Shown: piece after piece, positions 7,058 through 40,256 of the stretch | How the letters are laid out: each line of letters opens with the position of its first letter | Numbering within the stretch: the first letter of the stretch is position 1 | Source: Dehalococcoidales bacterium | GTDB taxonomy: Bacteria > Chloroflexota > Dehalococcoidia > Dehalococcoidales > Fen-1064 | Assembly (NCBI GenBank): GCA_020342155.1 | Contig: CP070842.1 | Span: 1,108,594 to 1,172,593, forward strand | Direction of reading: 5' to 3' | Length of the DNA stretch: 64,000 nt | Position numbers and translations under genes: made by a program | Notes under the pieces: model-generated | The model's database searches: none | What the model was told of the DNA's origin: nothing | The model's input: the letters and a program-made list of their open reading frames with translations, nothing else

Positions 7058-8683
7058 CTAGCGCCGGCTCGCCACTTCCTGCAACACCTCGGGCTTATGT
7101 ATGACATAGCGTCGGTTCTTCCCGCTCAAAATGTCTGACTTTCGAAAGCTTCGTAATAGCTTCCGTACATCGGCTACGGCAATCCCGGCCATGCCGGCAA
7201 GCTCCGATATAGAAAGAGAAACCGATATTGCCCACCCATCCGGCGTCTCCGTGCCGTGTGCCCGCATCAGCTCTAACAGGGTCCCAGCAAGACGGGCCGG
7301 TGGATTGTGGAAGATAACACTTTCCAGATGATAATTCAGGTCACGGATGCGCTGGGTAAGTACACCGAAGATACCGATAGCCGCCTCAGGATACCACCTC
7401 AGAAACTCAAGGAAGTCCCCACGTTCCAGGATAAATGTCTCCGTTGACTCGACTGCAGTGGCCGAAGCAGAGCGGGGTTTCTCATCCAGGAGCGACATCT
7501 CGCCGAAAAAATCGCCCGGACCAAGGTGGGCCAGCGTCATACTCTGGCCTTCTTTCCCAGGCACGCTTATCCTAACATCACCACTTCTGATTATGTAAAG
7601 AGCTGAGCCGACTTCATCCTTTCGGAATATGGTCTGCCCCTTCCGGTACCGCCTTTCCTGAAGCTTTTCCGAAAGCTCAGCCAGGTCATCGGAAGATATC
7701 GAGGCAAACAGAGGAATGCCTTTCAATGCCTCGGCCTTCCCTCGCAGAATCCGGGTATATGAGACGTGTTCCGGTACGGGAGTGCTCTCTGCATCCACCA
7801 GCTCACGCACAGAGGTCTTCAACTCGGTAAGAACCTCATCGATATCGGACGGACGGTTCGCCGGGTTCTTGGCCAGCATCTTCAGGATCAATGAGCTAAG
7901 GCGTTTCGGAATTCCCGGATTCCGCACATCCGGACTGGCCGGTGTTACCTGAATATGCTGGGAAACGAGGGATATGTCATCACTCAACGAAAAGGGAGGC
8001 TGGCCCGTTAGCGTTTCATACAAGACCACACCGAGGGAGTAGATATCACTCCTCGCGTCCACCTCCCGACCGAGGGCCTGTTCAGGAGCCATGTAAGTCG
8101 GTGTACCTCCGACCGAAGCGCCCGGCATGGTTGACTGGTCCTGCTGCATCCTGGCAATACCGAAGTCCATCAGCTTGACCTCATCGCCAACCACAATGTT
8201 CCCCGGCTTGATATCGCAGTGAATGACGCCGTGCCCGTGAGCATATGAGAGGGCAGCAGCAACCTTCGCGATAATTTCCAGCGCTTCGCTGATAGTGAGC
8301 CTCTTCTTACCATCATAGGCACCCTCTCGTATCTCCAGAATCGTGCTCAGGAGTGTCCCCGAGACGTATTCCATCACGAGATATGCCTGGTCTTCATACC
8401 AACCACAATTGTATAATGTCACTATGTTAGGATGGTTCATCCGTGCCAGTGACCTGGCCTCCCGGTAGAATTGTCCCGGGTTCTGGCGGCTGACCGTCCC
8501 CGGTTTAATTAGCTTTATAGCAACCGACCTGTCAAGCAACTCGTCTGTCGCCAGATAGACAGAGCCCATTCCTCCCTGCCCTAGGAGCTTTTCAACCCCG
8601 TACCGGTCGGCAATTGATTTGCCGACTATGCTCAAGGTTTGTAGCTCATCGTCCATTAACCACGGATTCTCTTCTTCATCCAT
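7058..8683 (-). CDS. Hanks-type Ser/Thr protein kinase fused to a complete Crp/Fnr-type module (cNMP-binding domain + HTH)
   Basis: Kinase motifs are GQGGMGSVYLA, VAIK, HCDIKPGN, DFG and APE. These are followed by a cNMP-binding beta-barrel (GDFFGEMSLLD..RSASA) and a C-terminal Crp-like HTH (ISELAGMAGIAVADVRKLLRSF). The start is taken at the ATG after GAGGAA and remains uncertain up to 8758. Confidence 0.8.
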   Translation of the reverse strand: MDEEENPWLMDDELQTLSIVGKSIADRYGVEKLLGQGGMGSVYLATDELLDRSVAIKLIKPGTVSRQNPGQFYREARSLARMNHPNIVTLYNCGWYEDQAYLVMEYVSGTLLSTILEIREGAYDGKKRLTISEALEIIAKVAAALSYAHGHGVIHCDIKPGNIVVGDEVKLMDFGIARMQQDQSTMPGASVGGTPTYMAPEQALGREVDARSDIYSLGVVLYETLTGQPPFSLSDDISLVSQHIQVTPASPDVRNPGIPKRLSSLILKMLAKNPANRPSDIDEVLTELKTSVRELVDAESTPVPEHVSYTRILRGKAEALKGIPLFASISSDDLAELSEKLQERRYRKGQTIFRKDEVGSALYIIRSGDVRISVPGKEGQSMTLAHLGPGDFFGEMSLLDEKPRSASATAVESTETFILERGDFLEFLRWYPEAAIGIFGVLTQRIRDLNYHLESVIFHNPPARLAGTLLELMRAHGTETPDGWAISVSLSISELAGMAGIAVADVRKLLRSFRKSDILSGKNRRYVIHKPEVLQEVASRR

Positions 8684-9851: not shown

Positions 9852-11189
9852 CTATCCTGTGGGGAACATCATCTCATCAGCCGTAGTGTAGCGGCGAGCC
9901 TTCGGCGGGCGGACGGTCGTCATGAGGAACGCCGCAATCGCGAACAAGCCGGCGATGACCATGAACGCCGGTTTGTAAGAGCCCATTACATCGAATACGA
10001 CATTCATAGCCAGCGGCCCGATAGCGCCGAATCCGAAAGCCATAAAGAAAGCAATCGAGCGGACCAAGCCCAGGCTGAAGCGGCCAAAGTAATCTGCCCA
10101 TATCGTCCCCTGCATCACGCCAACCCCCGACATGCCTATACCGTAGACCGCCACCGCCATCCAGAGAAATGCCGGCTGCTCAGCCACAAGGAAGAGAATC
10201 GCTGCCACGCCCTGGATAGCAAAGGGTGTGATACGAACCAGGATTTTCTGGGAATGCTCGATGAGGAGACCCATGAATGGTAGCGATGTTGCCATGATTG
10301 CAGCACGCACCGTCATTACCGATGCCACCATTGTATCCGCATAGCCCAGGTCCTGAATGTATGGCGCCAGGCTGATATTGATTCCCTGAAAAGCCATGCT
10401 GCATGCTCCGAAGGAAACGGCAAGTATCCAGAACGTCCGCGTGGCCAGCACCTCGCGGCGACTCCATATCGGCTCTCTAAGTGGTGTATAGTTGCTGGTT
10501 GTGTTATCCTCGCTGTGGTCCCCTGCTCTGGCTTGATTGGGGTCGATTCCATCGGGGTATAGTCCCATGTCTTCTGGCCGGCGACGCATTAACAGAAGTG
10601 AAGGGATAAGTACCACCAGCCACGTGATGACCGCAAAGACGACAAACATCGTTCGCCAGCCGTGAGCACCGATTATGAAAACAGTCAAAGGCACGAAGGC
10701 CATATTGCTGATGTTGCTACCAAGGCGGGCAATGGCAACAGCCCGGCCACGCTTCTTTACGAACCAGTTGTTGATGGCCACGTCTGTCACCAGATTGCCC
10801 ATCAGGGTGAACCCAAGGGCCACGACGATACCCCGTAAGAGGTAGAACTGCCAGATGGCATCGATTTGGGTTACGGCGAGCATGGCCAGGCTTACAATGA
10901 CGGCCCCGACAGGCATTAATAGCCGGGAGCCGTACCGGTCGATAAACGGGCCAACGATGGGGGCAACCATCGCCTCGGCCACCCTGGCAATTGTCTGCAC
11001 GGCCGCCAGAGCGCTACGGTTCCAGCCAAACTCATTCTGAAAAGGCCTGAAGAAGAACCCCAGCATGGACGAGTGATGCTCGGCGTAGGCAAGATGAGCC
11101 ATGAAAGAAGCCGCGACCACATTCCAGCCGTAGAAGTAACGAGGCTTTTTCTTAGTGGCATCAACCATCTTGCCAGTCATGACCCACAC
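9852..11189 (-). CDS. MFS transporter
   Basis: It has about 12 hydrophobic segments, a central cytoplasmic loop, and an MFS-like GPFIDRYGSR loop motif. Confidence 0.8.
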   Translation of the reverse strand: MWVMTGKMVDATKKKPRYFYGWNVVAASFMAHLAYAEHHSSMLGFFFRPFQNEFGWNRSALAAVQTIARVAEAMVAPIVGPFIDRYGSRLLMPVGAVIVSLAMLAVTQIDAIWQFYLLRGIVVALGFTLMGNLVTDVAINNWFVKKRGRAVAIARLGSNISNMAFVPLTVFIIGAHGWRTMFVVFAVITWLVVLIPSLLLMRRRPEDMGLYPDGIDPNQARAGDHSEDNTTSNYTPLREPIWSRREVLATRTFWILAVSFGACSMAFQGINISLAPYIQDLGYADTMVASVMTVRAAIMATSLPFMGLLIEHSQKILVRITPFAIQGVAAILFLVAEQPAFLWMAVAVYGIGMSGVGVMQGTIWADYFGRFSLGLVRSIAFFMAFGFGAIGPLAMNVVFDVMGSYKPAFMVIAGLFAIAAFLMTTVRPPKARRYTTADEMMFPTG

Positions 11190-12709: not shown

Positions 12710-12785
12710 TGGTACCCTGGTGCGACTCGGACGCACGACACACGTCTTAGGAAACCGTTGCTCTATCCTACTGAGCTACAGGAGC
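12710..12785 (-). tRNA. degenerate copy of tRNA-Arg(CCT), probable pseudo-tRNA
   Basis: It aligns end to end with the intact gene at 30782-30858. However, it lacks one G in the 3' acceptor strand, has TCCGA instead of TTCGA in the T-loop, and has a broken anticodon stem (ACGGT / GACGT). Confidence 0.6.
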
Positions 12786-12840
12786 ATGTAGCCCGGTTTC
12801 GGGCAACCTCACCAGACACTCGCGTTGTACGTTGTCCACA

Positions 12841-12914
12841 CTCACCGCACAGGTGATTACAGCACGTTCTTTCCTTGTCAGTCACCACCGTTGTTGTTAT
12901 ACTGAAATTCACCC
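12841..12914. repeat. copy of the block upstream of tRNA-Arg (partner at 30866-30940)
   Basis: By manual alignment, ctcaccgcacaggtgattaYagcacgttctttccttgtcagtcaccaccgttgttgYtatact... is shared with only a few substitutions. Confidence 0.8.
12875..12903 (+). promoter_or_regulatory. sigma70-like promoter inside the duplicated block (TTGTCA-17-TATACT), facing the fmdE-like operon
   Basis: The hexamers and 17-nt spacer were read directly. The same sequence is present at 30900-30928. Confidence 0.45.
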
Positions 12915-12956: not shown

Positions 12957-13577
12957 GTGATGAAGAACGTTACCTCCTCTGAAATCACCGTTTGCGGCCA
13001 TACTTATGATGAATACATCGAGATGATAAAAGCCTTCCACGGGCATGTTGCACCGGGAATGGTTATCGGTGGATTCATGGTTGACTTAGCCAACCGAAAT
13101 CTTCCGCAAGGTGAGTATTTTGATGCCATATGTGAGACCCGTGCCTGTCTTCCCGATGCCATTCAACTTCTTACCCCGTGTACGGTAGGTAATGGATGGT
13201 TAAGGGTTGTCGACCTAGGCCGGTTTGCCCTGTCGTTATTCGAAAAATATACGGGGGACGGTGTGCGGGTGTATGTGAATAGTCGGAAGCTCGATGACTG
13301 GCCCGAGATCAAAGCTTTCTTTTTCAAACTGACACCCAAGAAAGAACAGGATTCTGAGGCACTAATTGCTGAAATGAACCGCGCTCATACATCAATCCTT
13401 GGCGTTCAAAAAGTGACGATTGACCTGAATGCCATCAAATCCAGCCGCCGTGATGTTTTTACCACTTGTTGGTTGTGCGGTGAAGGTTATCCCGAAAATG
13501 ACGGCGAAATCTGTTTGGGCTGTCAAGGGAAAGCGCCTTATTCGCATTTTGAAATTCTGAGTTCGGGGGAAGATTAG
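12957..13577 (+). CDS. FmdE-family protein with C-terminal zinc-ribbon
   Basis: It has an FmdE-like core (FHGHVAPGMVIGGFM) and a C-terminal CWLCGE....CLGC. Confidence 0.75.
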   Translation: MMKNVTSSEITVCGHTYDEYIEMIKAFHGHVAPGMVIGGFMVDLANRNLPQGEYFDAICETRACLPDAIQLLTPCTVGNGWLRVVDLGRFALSLFEKYTGDGVRVYVNSRKLDDWPEIKAFFFKLTPKKEQDSEALIAEMNRAHTSILGVQKVTIDLNAIKSSRRDVFTTCWLCGEGYPENDGEICLGCQGKAPYSHFEILSSGED

Positions 13578-13622
13578 AGCTACCGCTCCAGTTACGAAAT
13601 AACTGTAGAGGAGGTACTGAGT

Positions 13623-15869
13623 ATGTTATGGAAGAAAACTGCCTGTGTATTGTGTGGCAATAGTTGCGGTCTGGAAGTCCAGGTTGAAGACAACCGTATC
13701 ATAAAAGTCCGCCCGGACAAGGATGACCCCAGGAGTGAAGGGTATTTATGTCGGAAGGGGATGAACATTGCTTTCCATCAGCACAATGCCGACCGTGTAC
13801 TCTATCCACTGAAGAGGGTGGGAGAGAAATTCGAACGGATTTCCTGGGATCAGGCAATCAGCGAGATTTCAGAAAAGCTCAAGGCGATACTCCAGCAACA
13901 CGGAGTGCGCTCTTTAGCCTCACTGGTCAGTATCGGGGAGTTCGGCTATGGCAACTACGGTCTCCAGTATTGCGCTCGCCTTGTCCGTAGGCTTGGCTCA
14001 CGGTACCAGTATTCAGCCGCCAACCAGGAATTTGCCGGTCGCTATTGGGCGCATGGTCTGACGCTGGGAAGTCAGGGAATGGGTCTGGCATCCGACTTTG
14101 AAAATACCGACATGCTGCTACTTGTCGGGAAGAACCCTCTGATGAGTCACAATTTCCCCCAGGCACGGAGAAGACTGACAAAGATGTCAAAGGACCCGGA
14201 GCGGCTCCTTGTGGTGGTCGACCCACGACTGTCGGAGACCGCTAAGATAGCGGATATTCATCTGGCAATCCGCCCCGGCACCGATGCTCTCCTCATCAAG
14301 TCTATGATTTCCATTATTCTCAGCGATGAGATGCATGACCAGGAATTCATAGGCAAATATACAAACGGATTCAGCGAGATACTACCGTGGTTTGCCGACT
14401 TTGATGTAAAGGCTGCGCTGAAGGTCTGTGAACTTGATTACGACCAGGTCTTCAAGGTCTGCCAGGAGTTCACCAGCCGAAAGTCGTGCCTGATTGATGA
14501 CCTTGGCATACTGATGAACCGGCACAGCGCGCTCGTCTCGTACCTGCTAGTTGTGCTGCTGGCTATCTGTGGTCGTATCAGCGTACCCGGGGGGAACTAC
14601 CTAGTAGGAGGTGGACCCAGCTCAGACCCGAACGACCCGCGGACGTGGCGAACACTGATAACGGATATTCCCGCCATCAATGGTCTGTTCCCTCCTAATG
14701 TGCTACCAGAAGAGATTATGAGTGACCATCCAGACCGTATCAGAGCCGTACTTACCTTTGCATCCAATCCGTTGCGTTCGTATGCCGATACAACTGCATA
14801 CGAAAATGCTTTTCGCCAGCTTGAGCTACTGGTTGTCACTGAAATAGCAATGAGTGAGACGGCCGCCCTGGCCCATTATGTTCTTCCTTCCAAGACAGCC
14901 TACGAATCATGGAGCGGCACTCTTAGCTCGGGTTCCCCGGAAGTTTATGGCTGGATACGGCGACCTGTTGTAGAGGCCGAAGGAGAGCAAAAAGAAGGTG
15001 GCGAGATATTCACGCTTCTGGCCGATGCCATGGGACTGATTCCTGAGCTACCCGAATCGCTCTATCAGGCTGCCAGAAGCGGCAACATCAGGGAATACCG
15101 GGATACGTTCAGGGACTATATGACTGCTAATCCTGAGAGCGGTAGATTCATGCAGTTCATCACCGCGAAAACCCTGGGCAATGCAATGGGTTCCGCTCAT
15201 TTGGCCGGTCTTTTCAGCATGTTGTTTCTACCGAGGCCCCGGGCAAGTCAGGAAGAGGCTGCAAAAGCCGGTTTTGCCGTGGGAGAAGACCAGGGCCTGG
15301 ACATATATAAGGCCATCATCGACCATATAGATGACCAGGAAGGCGTGCTGGTAGGAATACGCAGCCCAGCCGATCCATACAAGAATATCGAGTCAATAGC
15401 TACAGAGAACGGGAAAATCCAGCTTTATAATTCAGAGGTTGACGATTGGGTAAAAAAGATTAATGCGGATGCTGAAGAAAAATCACTAAAGCCCGATGAT
15501 GAATTCCCCCTGATTCTGATGGCAGGACGGCACATGGACATGAACGCCAATACGGAGATGCGAGACCCGGTATGGAACGAGGGCAGAAGGGCATGCACAC
15601 TGGCTATGCACCCGGCGGATGCAGAGGAACTGGGGCTTGCCGACAAACAGATGGTGAAGGTTATGACTGAAGCAGGGGAAGAAACAATAGAGGTCGAAGT
15701 GACCAAAGATACCAGGAAAGGGCAGGTCATCATTCCCCACGGATTTGGCCTAATCTATGATGGGGTGAAATACGGTGCCAATGTCAATCGGTTAACCAAG
15801 AACACCCATCGAGACCATGTCGGAACGCCAATGCATCGTTATATCCCCTGTCGTGTAGAACCGGTATGA
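13623..15869 (+). CDS. molybdopterin-dependent oxidoreductase (MopB superfamily, formate-dehydrogenase-like, cytoplasmic)
   Basis: It has the N-terminal Fe-S motif CVLCGNSCGLEV....CRKG, is 748 aa, and has a C-terminal molybdopterin dinucleotide-binding region. There is no Tat signal and no in-frame TGA. The RBS is GAGGAGGT. Confidence 0.85.
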   Translation: MLWKKTACVLCGNSCGLEVQVEDNRIIKVRPDKDDPRSEGYLCRKGMNIAFHQHNADRVLYPLKRVGEKFERISWDQAISEISEKLKAILQQHGVRSLASLVSIGEFGYGNYGLQYCARLVRRLGSRYQYSAANQEFAGRYWAHGLTLGSQGMGLASDFENTDMLLLVGKNPLMSHNFPQARRRLTKMSKDPERLLVVVDPRLSETAKIADIHLAIRPGTDALLIKSMISIILSDEMHDQEFIGKYTNGFSEILPWFADFDVKAALKVCELDYDQVFKVCQEFTSRKSCLIDDLGILMNRHSALVSYLLVVLLAICGRISVPGGNYLVGGGPSSDPNDPRTWRTLITDIPAINGLFPPNVLPEEIMSDHPDRIRAVLTFASNPLRSYADTTAYENAFRQLELLVVTEIAMSETAALAHYVLPSKTAYESWSGTLSSGSPEVYGWIRRPVVEAEGEQKEGGEIFTLLADAMGLIPELPESLYQAARSGNIREYRDTFRDYMTANPESGRFMQFITAKTLGNAMGSAHLAGLFSMLFLPRPRASQEEAAKAGFAVGEDQGLDIYKAIIDHIDDQEGVLVGIRSPADPYKNIESIATENGKIQLYNSEVDDWVKKINADAEEKSLKPDDEFPLILMAGRHMDMNANTEMRDPVWNEGRRACTLAMHPADAEELGLADKQMVKVMTEAGEETIEVEVTKDTRKGQVIIPHGFGLIYDGVKYGANVNRLTKNTHRDHVGTPMHRYIPCRVEPV

Positions 15870-17149: not shown

Positions 17150-17190
17150 AGATCAGTAAATTGGGAGATTGTTAAGTCAAAGGTAAAATC

Positions 17191-17233
17191 TGGTACCCCT
17201 AGTGCGACTCGAACGCACGGCACGCGGTTTAGG
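17191..17233 (-). repeat. 43-nt copy of the 3' half of tRNA-Arg(CCT) (att-like direct repeat)
   Basis: tggtacccctagtgcgactcgaacgcacggcacgcggtttagg matches 30782-30824 except at 3 positions. It ends in the anticodon loop. Confidence 0.7.
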
Positions 17234-17416
17234 TAATCACTCTATGGTTTGCCCTCTTCCGCCATTAGTCAAGAGTCTGTATAATGGCGAAGAGATGCCC
17301 AACTACCCGAGAGATATGACTGCATCCAGGGTTCATATTACCACAGCGACGATTTCAACCGGGCAATAATCGCCATAACCGAGTCAGGCAGATATAACCG
17401 AAAAGGAGTTCAGATA

Positions 17417-18402: not shown

Positions 18403-19101
18403 ATGTCATATAAACGTTTGAATTCATATAAGGGACATCTTGGGCCTGCACAAGTCAGCGAAGGCATGAACCTTGCTCGTAAAAACGCTATTCGTTTGCT
18501 GGAGGATGCCAAAATCCTTTACGAAAATAACCGATATCCGTCCGCCACTGCCTTAGCTATTCTTTCCATTGAAGAATCTGGTAAAACGTCTATTCTCCGT
18601 CAGTTGTCTTTAGTTAAACCAGACGAAGAACTAAAAAATACTTGGAAGGAATATCGTTCTCATACCAAAAAGAACGTGCTGTGGACATTGCTTGATATGG
18701 TAAATAAAGGCGCACAACAATTGGATGACTTTAAACCTATGTTTGACCCTGCATCAGAACACCCTTATGTTTTGGATAATATTAAACAAATCAGTTTTTA
18801 CACTGATTGCTTAGGGCAAGCCCACTGGTCCAATCCATCTGAAATAATAAACAGGAATCTAGCCTCAAGTTTGATATTTGTTGCAGAAGCCTTATCTGTT
18901 GGTTATGAGATAACTACAAAAGAAATCGAGTTATGGATTAAACATCTCGGCAATGCAGATATTTCTTATGAAAGTCAGAAAAAGGCAGTACTTAATTGGT
19001 ATTATGATATGGAAAATAACGGTCTGTTGCCATCTGATTATAGCTTCACAGACGTAATGAAATGGCTTGGTTTCAATATCGACGATATATCCTCGGAATA
19101 G
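18403..19101 (+). CDS. AbiV-like (HEPN-type) abortive-infection family protein
   Basis: The N-terminal pattern NLARKNAIRLLEDAKILYENNRYPSATALAILSIEESGK matches what I recall of AbiV-family proteins. The gene is AT-rich and sits between two att-like repeats. Confidence 0.55.
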   Translation: MSYKRLNSYKGHLGPAQVSEGMNLARKNAIRLLEDAKILYENNRYPSATALAILSIEESGKTSILRQLSLVKPDEELKNTWKEYRSHTKKNVLWTLLDMVNKGAQQLDDFKPMFDPASEHPYVLDNIKQISFYTDCLGQAHWSNPSEIINRNLASSLIFVAEALSVGYEITTKEIELWIKHLGNADISYESQKKAVLNWYYDMENNGLLPSDYSFTDVMKWLGFNIDDISSE

Positions 19102-19159: not shown

Positions 19160-19171
19160 GCTTTAAAAATC

Positions 19172-19216
19172 TGGTACCCCTGGTGCGACTCGAACGCACG
19201 ACACACGGTTTAGGAA
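19172..19216 (-). repeat. 45-nt copy of the 3' half of tRNA-Arg(CCT) (att-like direct repeat)
   Basis: tggtacccctggtgcgactcgaacgcacgacacacggtttaggaa is identical to 30782-30826. It shares extra flanks (aaaatc on the left, taYggtttRccc on the right) with the copy at 17191. Confidence 0.8.
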
Positions 19217-19446
19217 GTAGTATTACGGTTTACCCACGAAAGCCAGTCAATTTGTGCCCGAGAGACGGTGGATATTGGCACTTTTTTCTTCAGATTAGCG
19301 TGTCAACCTCCCGGTCAATTACGGGAGATTTGCAGAAAAAATTCGGAAATAATTCAACCTTTAACAGCGAAAAAAGGCTTGTACAAAATGATAAGGAAAA
19401 CTTAGTTAGTCTCGCTTACTTAGGGGGGTTTATATTCAGTCTGTAT

Positions 19447-26542: not shown

Positions 26543-26610
26543 GTTTAACCGAATAACTTGTAGTGAATCGTGAATCGAAAATGTATAGGAAGGAAAATCA
26601 AGAGATAGCC

Positions 26611-26955
26611 ATGAAAGTCGACTTCTATTGCTGGGCAAAATGAAATACCTGTCGTAAGGCGAAGGAGTATCTTTCGCAAAAGAACCTGGAAATCAACGAG
26701 CGTGATTTCTTCAAGAATCCCTTCAACCGGACGGAGATCGAGGAGTTGCTCCAAGGGAAATCTGCTTCTGTGATGTTCAACTTCAGAAGCCCCAGCTTCA
26801 AGCAGCTCGGTCTGGAGCGAGATAAACTTAGCGATAGTGAACTAGTCGATTTTATGTTAAAAGAACCAAGACTTGTCCGCAGGCCTGTGGTTCGTATTGG
26901 TGACAGAGTATATTATAGCGCTGATAAGTCAGTTCTGGAGGGTTTAGTAGGTTAG
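26611..26955 (+). CDS. ArsC/Spx/YffB-family thioredoxin-fold protein with in-frame TGA at codon 11 (candidate selenoprotein, otherwise a pseudogene)
   Basis: The sequence reads MKVDFYCWAK-TGA-NTCRKAKEYL... in a single frame through to the ORF-track fragment 26746-26955. The TGA (26641-26643) aligns with the first Cys of the family CxxC motif. The downstream RSPSFKQLGL and EPRLVRRPVV match the family. Confidence 0.55.
26659..26677 (+). other. hairpin 15 nt downstream of the in-frame TGA (possible bacterial SECIS)
   Basis: GCGAAGGA-GTA-TCTTTCGC forms 8 pairs including one G-U. There is a GU in the apical region. Confidence 0.35.
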
Positions 26956-26956
26956 T

Positions 26957-27418
26957 ATGGAGCGGTTGAACCCGGAGAAACTCCATGTAACGTACTTAAC
27001 CGGCACTACTCCTGAGAGTCTCGTGTTACCCAGACGTTACACGCTGACTCACTCTGATATTTCAGGCAAGCTCTTTCTCTCCATCGGTAGTGATTATGAT
27101 ACACGGAAGACTTCTAAATTATATACCAGACTAATGAGGGATGAAGTATTGGCAGAATTAGTAGACGAGGGAGAAGGTCCTGTATTCAGGGTGCACTGTC
27201 ATGTCAGTGGAGGATTTGTTTTTGGTAGGGCTAAGTGGCGGTATGATATCTTCCAATCTGAACTACCGCTCGTGTTGGAAGCTATAAGATACGGTGATAG
27301 GACACTATTTGAATATAATCCAGAACTCGACAACAGCCTGATATTCATAAAATTCCATTCAACTGATAGCAAGTTTGATAAGGTCGAAAATTGGGGTACC
27401 ATGCTCAGATACAACTGA
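26957..27418 (+). CDS. Staygreen (SGR, Mg-dechelatase) family protein
   Basis: RRYTLTHSDISGKL, RDEVLAE and VHCHVSGG are hallmark SGR motifs. The ATG lies 1 nt after the ArsC-family stop codon. Confidence 0.8.
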   Translation: MERLNPEKLHVTYLTGTTPESLVLPRRYTLTHSDISGKLFLSIGSDYDTRKTSKLYTRLMRDEVLAELVDEGEGPVFRVHCHVSGGFVFGRAKWRYDIFQSELPLVLEAIRYGDRTLFEYNPELDNSLIFIKFHSTDSKFDKVENWGTMLRYN

Positions 27419-28437: not shown

Positions 28438-28520
28438 AATGAAATCCGCGAGATGGATATGCAGCCCTCACTGGAGAGGGCGCTGAGAGAAAAGGAGACT
28501 CTGGGGGCGTAGAAAGATAC
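28438..28520 (+). repeat. cassette-junction repeat, copy 1
   Basis: It encodes ...NEIREMDMQPSLERALREKETLGA* (micro-ORF 28459-28512) and contains the hairpin GCCCTC-actgga-GAGGGC (28464-28481). Confidence 0.75.
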
Positions 28521-29693: not shown

Positions 29694-29743
29694 GAAAAGT
29701 CACAGGCGCTCGTACCTGATCAACCAATATAATATTGGGATTA

Positions 29744-29802
29744 AGATGCAACCTTCACTGGAGAGGGCACTGAGGCACAAGGAGATACTAGGGACGTAGG
29801 GC
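29744..29802 (+). repeat. cassette-junction repeat, copy 2
   Basis: The micro-ORF 29746-29799 encodes MQPSLERALRHKEILGT*. The hairpin is retained with a U-G pair (CCTTC...GAGGG). Confidence 0.75.
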
Positions 29803-30682: not shown

Positions 30683-30765
30683 AACGAGTTCTGCGAGATG
30701 AAGATGCAGCCCTCGCTAGAGAGGGCACGGAGGCACAAGGAGATACTGGGGGCTTAGAAAGGTAC
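30683..30765 (+). repeat. cassette-junction repeat, copy 3, ending about 17 nt from the tRNA 3' end
   Basis: It encodes NEFCEMKMQPSLERARRHKEILGA* (micro-ORF 30704-30757) and contains the hairpin GCCCTC-gctaga-GAGGGC. Confidence 0.75.
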
Positions 30766-30781
30766 CACGAATTTAACAATT

Positions 30782-30858
30782 TGGTACCCCTGGTGCGACT
30801 CGAACGCACGACACACGGTTTAGGAAACCGTTGCTCTATCCTACTGAGCTACAGGGGC
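30782..30858 (-). tRNA. tRNA-Arg (anticodon CCT), CCA encoded
   Basis: The reverse complement folds by hand as a 77-nt cloverleaf. Its parts are acceptor GCCCCTG/CAGGGGT, D-arm GCTC-AGTAGGATA-GAGC, anticodon arm ACGGT-TTCCTAA-ACCGT, T-arm GTGCG-TTCGAGT-CGCAC, and A-CCA. Confidence 0.9.
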
Positions 30859-30865
30859 TTGCAGG

Positions 30866-30940
30866 CTCACCGCACAGGTGATTATAGCACGTTCTTTCCT
30901 TGTCAGTCACCACCGTTGTTGCTATACTAAACTTCACCCC
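30866..30940. repeat. block upstream of tRNA-Arg (partner at 12841-12914)
   Basis: See the partner feature. In this copy the block starts 7 nt from the tRNA 5' end. In the decayed copy, 55 nt intervene. Confidence 0.8.
30900..30928 (+). promoter_or_regulatory. sigma70-like promoter TTGTCA-17-TATACT facing the TolB-like gene
   Basis: Read directly. It is a duplicate of 12875-12903. Confidence 0.45.
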
Positions 30941-39319: not shown

Positions 39320-39714
39320 TCAACTCGCCTGGTACCAAACGGATGCAGCCTGTGCAGTACGTCTCAACTTCGCCTTTATTCGAGCGACCAGTTCGACGGC
39401 ACTGAAGGGCTTGGTCACGTAGTCATCAGCACCGAGATTCAGCGCCTTTCGCAGAGTAGGCCCTTCGCATCGTCCTGTAACCATAACTACAGGGATATTA
39501 CTGTGCTCACGGATGAGGTCGAGCACCTGAAATCCATCTAGGTCATTCATTACGATATCGAGCAGCACTAGGTCCGGTTGCCACTCGTCTATCTCTGCCT
39601 CCGCCCTACCGAGACCCTGATAATGAAATCACGCGAAAATCCCCGTCACGTCTGCACACATGATTTACTGCGCAGACAATTCCGGAGGAATCTCCTGTCG
39701 ATTACACCCTCCAT
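39320..39714 (-). pseudogene. decayed stand-alone response-regulator receiver gene
   Basis: The C-terminal two thirds are intact (PDLVLLDIVMNDLDGF...VVMVTG...GADDYVTKPF). The N-terminal third is interrupted by in-frame TAA and TGA and is out of frame with the only upstream ATG (39714). The acidic DD pocket is unrecognisable. Confidence 0.55.
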
Positions 39715-39923
39715 TGCTACCCGCCGGAGACTGACTGGCATGCGCCAGAACTGTTCTCACCTATCATCAAGATAACTCAGTCTGGCAGAGTGTGCCATTG
39801 GTAGGTATACCTAATTAGATTCGAGACAGTTCCCTAGTTCTAACACGAAGGCTTCTGGAGATGGCCTGCCACCTAAGAATTGGAGTCCAGCTAGTCTCAT
39901 CTTTCCTTTTGCAAGCAGGGTGT

Positions 39924-40140
39924 AAACCAAGGGGGACACCCCCTTGAATTCCCGTTCCAAAGGGGTTACACCCCTCTGGACTCCCCAAAACGGTGTGGGA
40001 TCAATTCTCTAGCAGGGACCATTCGCATCTAAAAAAGAGCCCGAAGCCGGGGGCACAAATGCACTTCCCTAGAGACAAGGTCTCCAAATGCTGCTAAAGG
40101 GTAGTCAAAGAGGGGCTGTACCCTATCTGAACGAGCACAT
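39924..40140. repeat. hairpin-rich inverted repeat, copy 1 (partner 43515-43707, inverted)
   Basis: By manual alignment, its reverse complement matches copy 2 with a handful of substitutions and small indels. Nested palindromes are CAAGGGGGACACCCCCTTG, CCAAAGGGGTTACACCCCTCTGG and TAGAGACAAGGTCTCC. Confidence 0.8.
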
Positions 40141-40144
40141 TTCC

Positions 40145-40174
40145 TTGACACTCGACTGGCAAAGGACTTACAAT
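40145..40174 (+). promoter_or_regulatory. sigma70-like promoter TTGACA-18-TACAAT for the CoA-transferase operon
   Basis: Read directly. It is preceded by ccctatctgaacgagcaca, which is also found before the dsrE-like promoter. Confidence 0.55.
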
Positions 40175-40256
40175 CACCGCATCAAACTACCGAGGTTCGT
40201 GGCTATCGGTAGAAACCGACCCTGTATTGGAATTTTGATTGGAGCAGGAGAAGAAC

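Follow-up and report, generated by a model that had tools for sequence, protein, structure and literature searches.

The window considered here is a 64,000-nt stretch of contig CP070842.1 from a Dehalococcoidales bacterium (assembly GCA_020342155.1, positions 1,108,594 to 1,172,593 of the forward strand), and the subject of this analysis is a short gene at 26611–26955 within it that encodes a protein resembling Spx and ArsC and that is interrupted by one in-frame TGA. The gene lies between that of a predicted membrane protein and that of a Staygreen (SGR) homologue, and a hairpin follows the TGA within the coding sequence (Table 1). Translation from the ATG at 26611 gives the conceptual product MKVDFYCWAK*NTCRKAKEYLSQKNLEINERDFF..., in which the TGA at 26641–26643 is the sole internal in-frame stop ahead of the terminal TAG (26953–26955). 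The open reading frame (ORF) list has a single entry for this frame, 26746–26955 on the plus strand, which starts at a TTG and comprises 69 amino acids. Both observations bear out an earlier annotation of the window made without database searches (hereafter the sequence-only reading), which had noted that only the C-terminal 69 codons were listed and that the frame is open back to ATG 26611 save for one TGA. On the comparative evidence presented below, we put at about 0.88 the probability that the gene at 26611–26955 is intact and encodes a selenoprotein of 114 residues with the thioredoxin-like ArsC/Spx/YffB fold, in which the UGA is decoded as selenocysteine (Sec).

A second in-frame ATG is found further upstream, at 26581, and the frame is open to that point. 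Orthologues begin either at the methionine of MKVDF or two codons earlier, and the closest orthologue has a stop four codons upstream; because the orthologue starts support it, 26611 was taken as the start of the gene. From Met1 onward the orthologues are colinear in 80 genomes. In the NCBI and JGI records, relatives of the protein appear as fragments of 88–99 amino acids under the name 'arsenate reductase'. A protein search returned 551 homologues that fall into three groups: full-length forms with Cys, full-length entries with 'W', and entries of 88–99 amino acids. The last group is large and its members begin just past the redox motif, and the DNA behind these shortened entries contains the same TGA and an intact upstream N terminus, as in locus L001, which reads MKVDFYCWAK*NTCRKAREFL. 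Gene callers almost certainly truncate a real Spx/ArsC-like selenoprotein of 114 residues. The gene is systematically mis-annotated, and its recognition restores a conserved redox protein of at least 78 species-level genomes.

Table 1. Features of the putative selenoprotein locus in the window, and NCBIfam profile scores of its product
Feature	Position	Strand	Details
Predicted selenoprotein coding sequence, Spx/ArsC-like	26611–26955	+	114 codons + TAG; Sec would be codon 11; ArsC/Spx/YffB fold
Cys7 codon (TGC)	26629–26631	+	Third conserved cysteine, four residues before Sec (C-x3-U-x2-C); end of strand β1 in the model
In-frame TGA, read as Sec11	26641–26643	+	First position of the U-N-T-C redox motif; assigned by orthologue comparison
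Cys14 codon (TGT)	26650–26652	+	Second UxxC position, presumed resolving cysteine; aligns with the second Cys of Spx CxxC
Candidate bacterial selenocysteine insertion sequence (SECIS) hairpin, within the coding sequence	26659–26677	+	5' arm 26659–26666, loop 26667–26669 (GUA), 3' arm 26670–26677
Predicted membrane protein, 177 amino acids	26009–26542	+	Conserved upstream neighbour; no Pfam match
Staygreen (SGR, Mg-dechelatase family) homologue	26957–27418	+	Pfam PF12638, E 4.7e-50
NCBIfam TIGR01617 (Spx/MgsR-type)			64–80 bits in the window protein and eight diverse relatives; cutoff 75.05
NCBIfam TIGR00014 (arsenate reductase)			39–52 bits, window protein 50.1; cutoff 106
NCBIfam NF041106 (ArsC_rel_Se_1, curated ArsC-family selenoprotein)			28–36 bits, window protein 33.3; cutoff 85

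Conservation of the in-frame TGA

Orthologues were sampled in one scan of species-representative genomes, which gave 139 stretches encoding relatives, and the best 80 of these were kept. They come from two phyla, comprising Dehalococcoidia (25 loci) together with Syntrophales, Smithella, Syntrophus and other 'deltaproteobacterial' metagenome-assembled genomes (MAGs). The codon equivalent to 26641–26643 is TGA in 78 of the 80, TGC in locus L059 and TGT in locus L077, so both versions that the sequence-only reading had anticipated among orthologues, the TGA-bearing and the Cys-encoding, do occur. When all distinct full-length members of the family are counted (n = 135), 120 have TGA, 14 have Cys and 1 has Ser; the close homologues P0003, P0005 and P0006 are among those with Cys at this position. 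Unrelated stop or frameshift lesions at other positions had been named as the pattern that would speak for a mistaken call. What the orthologues share instead is a TGA at exactly the same codon, and 76 of the 78 TGA-bearing forms contain no further lesion. Damage is seen in L019, which has a TAG at the Trp8 codon (10022–10024) and no Staygreen gene downstream, and in L080, whose N terminus is disrupted (7663–7680); either could be a pseudogene or an assembly error. One Dehalococcoidia MAG (W156, DUEV01) holds paralogous copies, L010 and L017, of a block made up of the membrane protein, the Sec-type ArsC-like protein and Staygreen, with TGA in both.

The ten codons 5' of the TGA are conserved in their amino acids and vary at synonymous sites, as illustrated by Phe5 (TTC 26, TTT 53), Cys7 (TGC 71, TGT 11) and Lys10 (AAA 24, AAG 29). 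Because they are conserved as protein while drifting synonymously, these codons must be translated in the frame of the selenoprotein. In several database entries the site of the TGA is occupied by 'W'. Translation in these entries likewise continues past their own terminal TGA, and we therefore regard them as TGA forms that were translated under genetic code 4, that is, as gene-calling artefacts.

In Spx (3l78) the residue aligned with the TGA is the leading Cys of CxxC, and in Escherichia coli ArsC (1i9d) it is the N-terminal Cys (CGTS), the catalytic Cys12 of the literature. Both alignments agree with the earlier claim that the product matches the N terminus of Spx and ArsC proteins and that the TGA sits exactly on the first redox Cys. 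The second position of the motif, Cys14, is Cys in 98% of 83 Sec-form sequences. Cys7 is Cys in 99% of 83 sequences and has no counterpart at that position in Spx or ArsC; possible roles for it are those of a second resolving residue or of a metal ligand.

A conserved hairpin downstream of the UGA

The hairpin has the form GCGAAGGA-GUA-UCUUUCGC, with 8 pairs, and begins 15 nt past the TGA; it was found, GU-containing apex included, just as the sequence-only reading had described it. Its 3-nt loop starts with G-U, its UGA-to-loop distance is 23 nt and its folding energy is −8.3 kcal/mol. The limits published for bacterial SECIS (bSECIS) elements are a loop of 3–9 nt, a stem of 4–16 bp, 16–37 nt between UGA and loop, and a minimum free energy of −7.5 kcal/mol or lower, and the loop rule asks for G in the first two loop positions, then G or U (PMC13188914). 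The geometry and energy of the window hairpin lie within all of these published limits, which upholds the earlier placement of the hairpin in the bacterial SECIS range.

To assess how well the structure is conserved, 82 distinct TGA-bearing sequences were aligned without gaps. Of the pair cells of the 8-bp stem, 96.2% are paired, as against 34–75% in slid controls, and none of the column shuffles attained the observed pairing percentage or covariation score. Compensatory change is evident at pair 30:44 (GC 45, AU 19, GU 16) and at pair 32:42 (AU 42, GC 37, GU 3, with zero mismatches). RNAalifold independently retains a 5-bp core with the loop A-G-U-U/A-U, and this conserved core corresponds to 26661–26665 paired with 26671–26675. 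The loop G (26667) is invariant; the loop reads GUA in the window and GUU in most orthologues.

Codon usage within the hairpin is restricted. For Glu19, whose third codon base is the loop G, GAG is the codon in 80 of 80 sequences; at other Glu positions the two codons are used about equally often. Leu21 uses only CTT and CTC, two of the six possible codons, compared with five to six codons in other Leu columns; Ala17 is GCG or GCA in 67 of 68 sequences and Phe20 is TTT in 65 of 69. This synonymous-site constraint indicates selection at the RNA level that is confined to the hairpin. A hairpin that is unconserved among TGA-bearing homologues had been listed as a ground for abandoning the selenoprotein proposal; with its near-complete pairing, compensatory changes and synonymous constraint, the stem is the opposite of that.

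An entry from a 668-nt contig of the European Nucleotide Archive (ENA), P0043, has a glutaredoxin-like N terminus, TSPT-W-PYC, joined to the selenoprotein family exactly at the hairpin-encoded KEFLSQ. The W of P0043 is probably a TGA, which would make the motif U-P-Y-C, and the entry may be an assembly chimera of two selenoprotein genes whose SECIS sequences are similar, or else a genuine recombinant.

Family and fold of the protein

For profile and structure comparisons of the window protein, Cys was put in place of the TGA stop. The Cys-substituted product matches the Pfam ArsC family (PF03960) with 59.4 bits (E 4.4e-16, cutoff 24). The structure modelled with AlphaFold was that of the Cys form P0003, which is 83% identical to the window protein, and the model has a predicted local distance difference test score (pLDDT) of 91. 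Its best matches in the PDB are Spx, followed by ArsC-like proteins and YffB, with TM-scores of 0.76–0.84. In the model, the Sec/Cys residue follows strand β1 and immediately precedes helix α1, which is the classic CxxC position of thioredoxin-fold proteins.

The NCBIfam models place the protein nearest to Spx (Table 1). The window protein scores 70.7 bits against TIGR01617 and the eight diverse relatives score 63.6–80.3, with three of the eight above the cutoff. The cutoff of TIGR00014 was reached neither by the window protein nor by any of these relatives, and the same is true of the cutoff of NF041106. Arsenate reductase activity is unlikely on these sequence grounds, because a Cys replaces the Ser of ArsC, the third ArsC Arg is apparently absent and the gene is without ars context.

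Comparison with Spx, ArsC and the catalogued ArsC-like selenoproteins

In Bacillus and Streptococcus, Spx acts as a redox-sensing regulator and binds to the alpha subunit of RNA polymerase. Among the Spx structures compared (1z3e, 3gfk and 3l78) are the best sequence match of the window protein (3l78, E 3.5e-12) and its best structural match (TM-score 0.76), and the redox motif stands at the same position, C-T-S-C-R-K-A in Spx and U-N-T-C-R-K-A in the window. The window protein differs from Spx in having Sec in place of the first Cys and in its length of 114 residues, compared with 131–132 in the Spx chains, the C-terminal tail being absent. It also fails to exceed the TIGR01617 cutoff, falls far short of the cutoffs set for Spx equivalogs, and its hosts are Dehalococcoidia and Syntrophales, whereas those of Spx are Firmicutes.

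ArsC of E. coli plasmid R773 (1i9d), a glutaredoxin-coupled arsenate reductase, shares the fold (TM-score ~0.8), and its catalytic Cys aligns on Sec11. Two of its oxyanion-binding arginines are represented in the window protein: Arg59 and Arg91 of 1i9d, which are Arg60 and Arg94 of the literature numbering, align to the Arg of LLRK and that of INRP. The third arginine (Arg107), however, is Ala104 in the window protein by hand alignment. Further differences from R773 ArsC are the second Cys of the UxxC motif where ArsC has Ser, a TIGR00014 score of 50 bits against the 106 required, and the lack of ars operon context.

That ArsC-like selenoproteins are known from computational surveys, as the sequence-only reading stated, is correct. 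'ArsC-like' and 'distant ArsC homolog' selenoprotein families have been reported (PMC1794560), and the Global Ocean Sampling (GOS) survey listed 'Arsenate reductase 1' (UxxS) and 'Arsenate reductase 2, cd03032, UxxC' (PMC2398784). A 2026 review lists the 'Arsenate reductase 2' type under NF041106 and 'Arsenate reductase 1' under TIGR00014 (PMC13188914). With the surveyed ArsC-like UxxC selenoproteins the window protein has in common the superfamily (PF03960/COG1393), Sec as the first residue of UxxC and an uncharacterised function, as well as discovery through a Sec/Cys pair and a coding-region SECIS. It differs from the NF041106 family in that the window protein and the eight relatives fall far below the cutoff of that model and have TIGR01617 as their best model. 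With 'Arsenate reductase 1' selenoproteins it shares the ArsC superfamily and Sec at the catalytic Cys position, but it has UxxC and no TIGR00014 match, as opposed to UxxS and a match to the true arsenate reductase model. Set apart by its NF041106 score, the clade of the window protein is probably a separate Spx-like clade among the ArsC-like selenoproteins. As a selenoprotein discovery this is incremental, ArsC-like UxxC selenoproteins having been catalogued since 2006–2008. We consider the clade probably new within that group because it widely misses the NF041106 cutoff, and so escapes the curated NCBIfam model for such selenoproteins, and because public annotation truncates the gene.

Genetic code and selenocysteine machinery

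Of the window's 68 long ORFs, 21 terminate with TGA, and a reassigned code is thereby excluded. Genes for tRNA-Sec were found in two TGA-form loci, L043 (1126–1223, minus strand) and L087 (3045–3142, minus strand), with Rfam RF01852 scores of 76–77 bits against a gathering score of 47. Both loci are from Syntrophales-type genomes, the tRNA-Sec gene lies 7–9 kb upstream of the selenoprotein gene, and the two are among just 13 tRNAs in 1.36 Mb of related loci. In the same 1.36 Mb, tblastn with E. coli K-12 queries gave no match to SelA, SelB or SelD. Sec-decoding organisms exist in Dehalococcoidia, as exemplified by Dehalogenimonas (PMC4918011), and Dehalococcoidia MAGs with 46–49 predicted selenoprotein genes have been described (PMC13326102).

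A scan of the window for a second TGA-interrupted gene yielded no credible candidate, and an all-against-all search of the loci for conserved TGA/TGA or TGA/Cys pairs was unusable, because off-frame conservation among close relatives swamped it. A split AhpC call in L006 was considered as a Sec-peroxiredoxin and rejected, its two pieces being in different frames on a contig with many fragmented genes. Elsewhere in the window, an FmdE-like gene is followed by the gene of a 748-residue molybdopterin oxidoreductase (12957–15869, plus strand). Members of this oxidoreductase class are often selenoproteins; the one in the window is without an in-frame TGA.

Proposed mechanism and alternative explanations

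We propose that the UGA at 26641–26643 would not act as a stop and that Sec would be inserted as residue 11, a decoding strongly supported by the comparison of orthologues and carried out by a machinery that we presume. The hairpin, with its apical loop starting G-U, would serve as the SECIS element for this insertion. The redox centre would consist of Sec11 and Cys14 in a U-x-x-C arrangement directly ahead of the first helix, at the position of the CxxC switch of Spx and of the catalytic Cys of ArsC. Fold and motif together make it most likely that this centre cycles between the selenol/thiol and the selenenylsulfide form and that the protein is a thiol-selenol oxidoreductase or a redox sensor, not an arsenate reductase. 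In the Dehalococcoidia lineage that includes the window, the gene may be expressed as a tightly joined pair with the Staygreen homologue, in a neighbourhood in which light- and oxidative-stress genes recur.

Several observations weigh against the selenoprotein interpretation. Folded as a single sequence, the hairpin has a z score of −0.96, and 31 of 200 shuffles are equally or more stable; because this single-sequence fold is non-significant, we relied on the comparative evidence. An Rfam search of the region with E up to 10 returned a chance match to a small nucleolar RNA and no SECIS family. Part of the stem conservation could stem from the conserved peptide AKEFLSQ. The decay of the hairpin that would be expected in Cys forms was not seen among the 7 distinct ones: 8 of 8 pairs are kept in four of them and 7 in L059, and only L077 is clearly degraded. 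The 64-kb window contains no tRNA-Sec that we could find and, by tblastn with the E. coli K-12 queries, no match to SelA, SelB or SelD. Finally, the biochemical function is one that we infer from fold and motif only.

The persistence of the hairpin in Cys forms bears on how the two forms are related. Cys forms are scattered among Sec forms, and L059 is 89% identical to a Sec form and 68% identical to the nearest Cys form. Remnant SECIS-like structures have also been documented in recently converted Cys homologues (PMC1794560). On these two grounds, recent and repeated switches from Sec to Cys are the likeliest explanation for the retained stem.

In principle the gene could be dead, with the TGA a nonsense mutation in what was once an ArsC/Spx-like gene of the Cys form. 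That account would fit the handling of the gene as truncated by gene callers, both in the window (69 amino acids) and in relatives (88–99), and the damaged appearance of L019 and L080. However, the same TGA recurs across species-level genomes of two phyla, nearly always as the only lesion, the codons upstream of it have stayed conserved as protein, and conservation extends to the junction with the gene downstream. Because the TGA is conserved across orthologues and the upstream codons are conserved as protein, we regard a dead gene as effectively refuted. A related possibility is that translation does end at the UGA, leaving a leader of 10 codons, and that the functional product is an N-terminally truncated protein of 69–99 amino acids made from an internal start. 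Internal ATG, GTG or TTG codons are present in many orthologues and are the ones that annotators have chosen, but their positions vary from one orthologue to another (giving 88, 89, 93, 98, 99 or 103 amino acids, and 69 in the window). Such a product would also be without strand β1 and the whole UxxC centre, and the supposed leader is conserved as the true N terminus of the Cys-form proteins. We therefore hold a truncated functional product to be extremely unlikely.

The UGA might instead be read through or reassigned without selenium, by a Trp or Gly code or by near-cognate insertion of Trp or Cys, in which case the hairpin would slow the ribosome or be a by-product of the encoded peptide. 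The W shown at the site in several database entries and the retention of the hairpin in Cys forms, which means that the stem is not strictly tied to Sec, are what such an explanation has in its favour. The W entries, however, are code-4 artefacts, and the ordinary use of TGA as a terminator in the window leaves no room for a reassigned code. The natural alternative residue at the site is Cys, in 14 forms, and never a genuine Trp codon. Moreover, the loop G and the stem are under RNA constraint at synonymous sites and have bSECIS geometry, and two of the carrier genomes possess tRNA-Sec. Taken with these points, selenium-free decoding seems to us very unlikely, and Sec insertion is the interpretation retained in what follows.

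Staygreen homologue and gene neighbourhood

The start codon of the Staygreen gene, at 26957, lies one base past the stop of the putative selenoprotein gene. In 19 loci, all of Dehalococcoidia type, the SGR start is 316 nt past the Sec codon (317 in one locus); the junction was found in no Syntrophales locus among the loci compared. The sequence-only reading had argued from translational coupling to Staygreen. The tight junction on which that argument drew is real and conserved to the nucleotide, but it is limited to Dehalococcoidia-type loci.

On the other side, the 177-residue membrane protein adjoins the selenoprotein gene in 17 loci, and in 16 of them it is upstream and on the same strand. 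A block that recurs in Dehalococcoidia comprises heliorhodopsin, DegV, (epimerase, DUF1295/steroid dehydrogenase), the 177-residue membrane protein, the selenoprotein and Staygreen, and often near this block are genes for Fur, catalase/KatG, superoxide dismutase (SOD), ferritin/rubrerythrin, photolyase and MsrA/B. The upstream genes in the window encode a photolyase, PNPOx and STAS proteins, an amine oxidase, an epimerase and a DUF1295 protein, in an order that is syntenic with the closest relative. The Syntrophales loci have no universal conserved neighbour. Published work links heliorhodopsin to DegV, to DUF1295 and to genes of oxidative stress (bioRxiv 10.1101/2021.02.16.431466), and the physiological role of bacterial SGR homologues has been stated to be unknown (PMC8531759).

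It is conceivable, although we think it improbable, that the protein is a Sec-based redox switch of the Spx type or a dedicated redox partner of Staygreen within a light/oxidative-stress module of these non-photosynthetic Dehalococcoidia. If so, it would be the first selenoprotein of the Spx-regulator type and would provide a physiological handle on bacterial SGR homologues. In any event, the pairing of a putative Sec-containing Spx-like protein with Staygreen in heliorhodopsin neighbourhoods is a testable lead on the roles of SGR homologues and of the heliorhodopsin neighbourhood itself, and its conservation in Dehalococcoidia is the most interesting loose end of this analysis.

Other features of the window

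Two full copies of tRNA-Arg(CCT), 92% identical, are present at 12711–12786 and 30782–30858, both on the minus strand, and only the second passes the Rfam threshold. Between them lie two partial copies, both of the 3' half of the tRNA (17185–17254 and 19166–19254), and each full copy is followed by a 74-nt flank (12841–12914 and 30866–30939) that is 95% identical. The arrangement looks like serial island integration at a tRNA; Pfam detected no integrase among those genes of the window that were scanned. The selenoprotein cluster, a region of lower GC content at about 19.3–30.8 kb, is situated between a partial tRNA-Arg repeat and the intact tRNA. A gene of the AbiV/HEPN family, of abortive-infection type (PF18728, E 5e-41; 18403–19101, plus strand), lies between the two partial repeats.

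The largest non-coding stretch of the window, 39339–40238, is also the only other large coding gap of the gene map. It holds a response-regulator receiver remnant (39320–39568, minus strand), the N-terminal part of which is missing, with several in-frame stops upstream.

A 61-nt repeat occurs three times, at 28452–28512, 29739–29799 and 30697–30757, in each case just 3' of a gene: that of an alpha/beta hydrolase, of a DUF6815 protein and of a methyltransferase, respectively. The repeat contains a 6-bp hairpin, GCCCTC-N6-GAGGGC, and encodes a mini-ORF of 17 codons, MQPSLERALR[E/H]KE[T/I]LG[A/T], whose copies differ mostly at synonymous positions. The repeat may represent a family of small peptide genes or an element resembling repetitive extragenic palindromic (REP) sequences.

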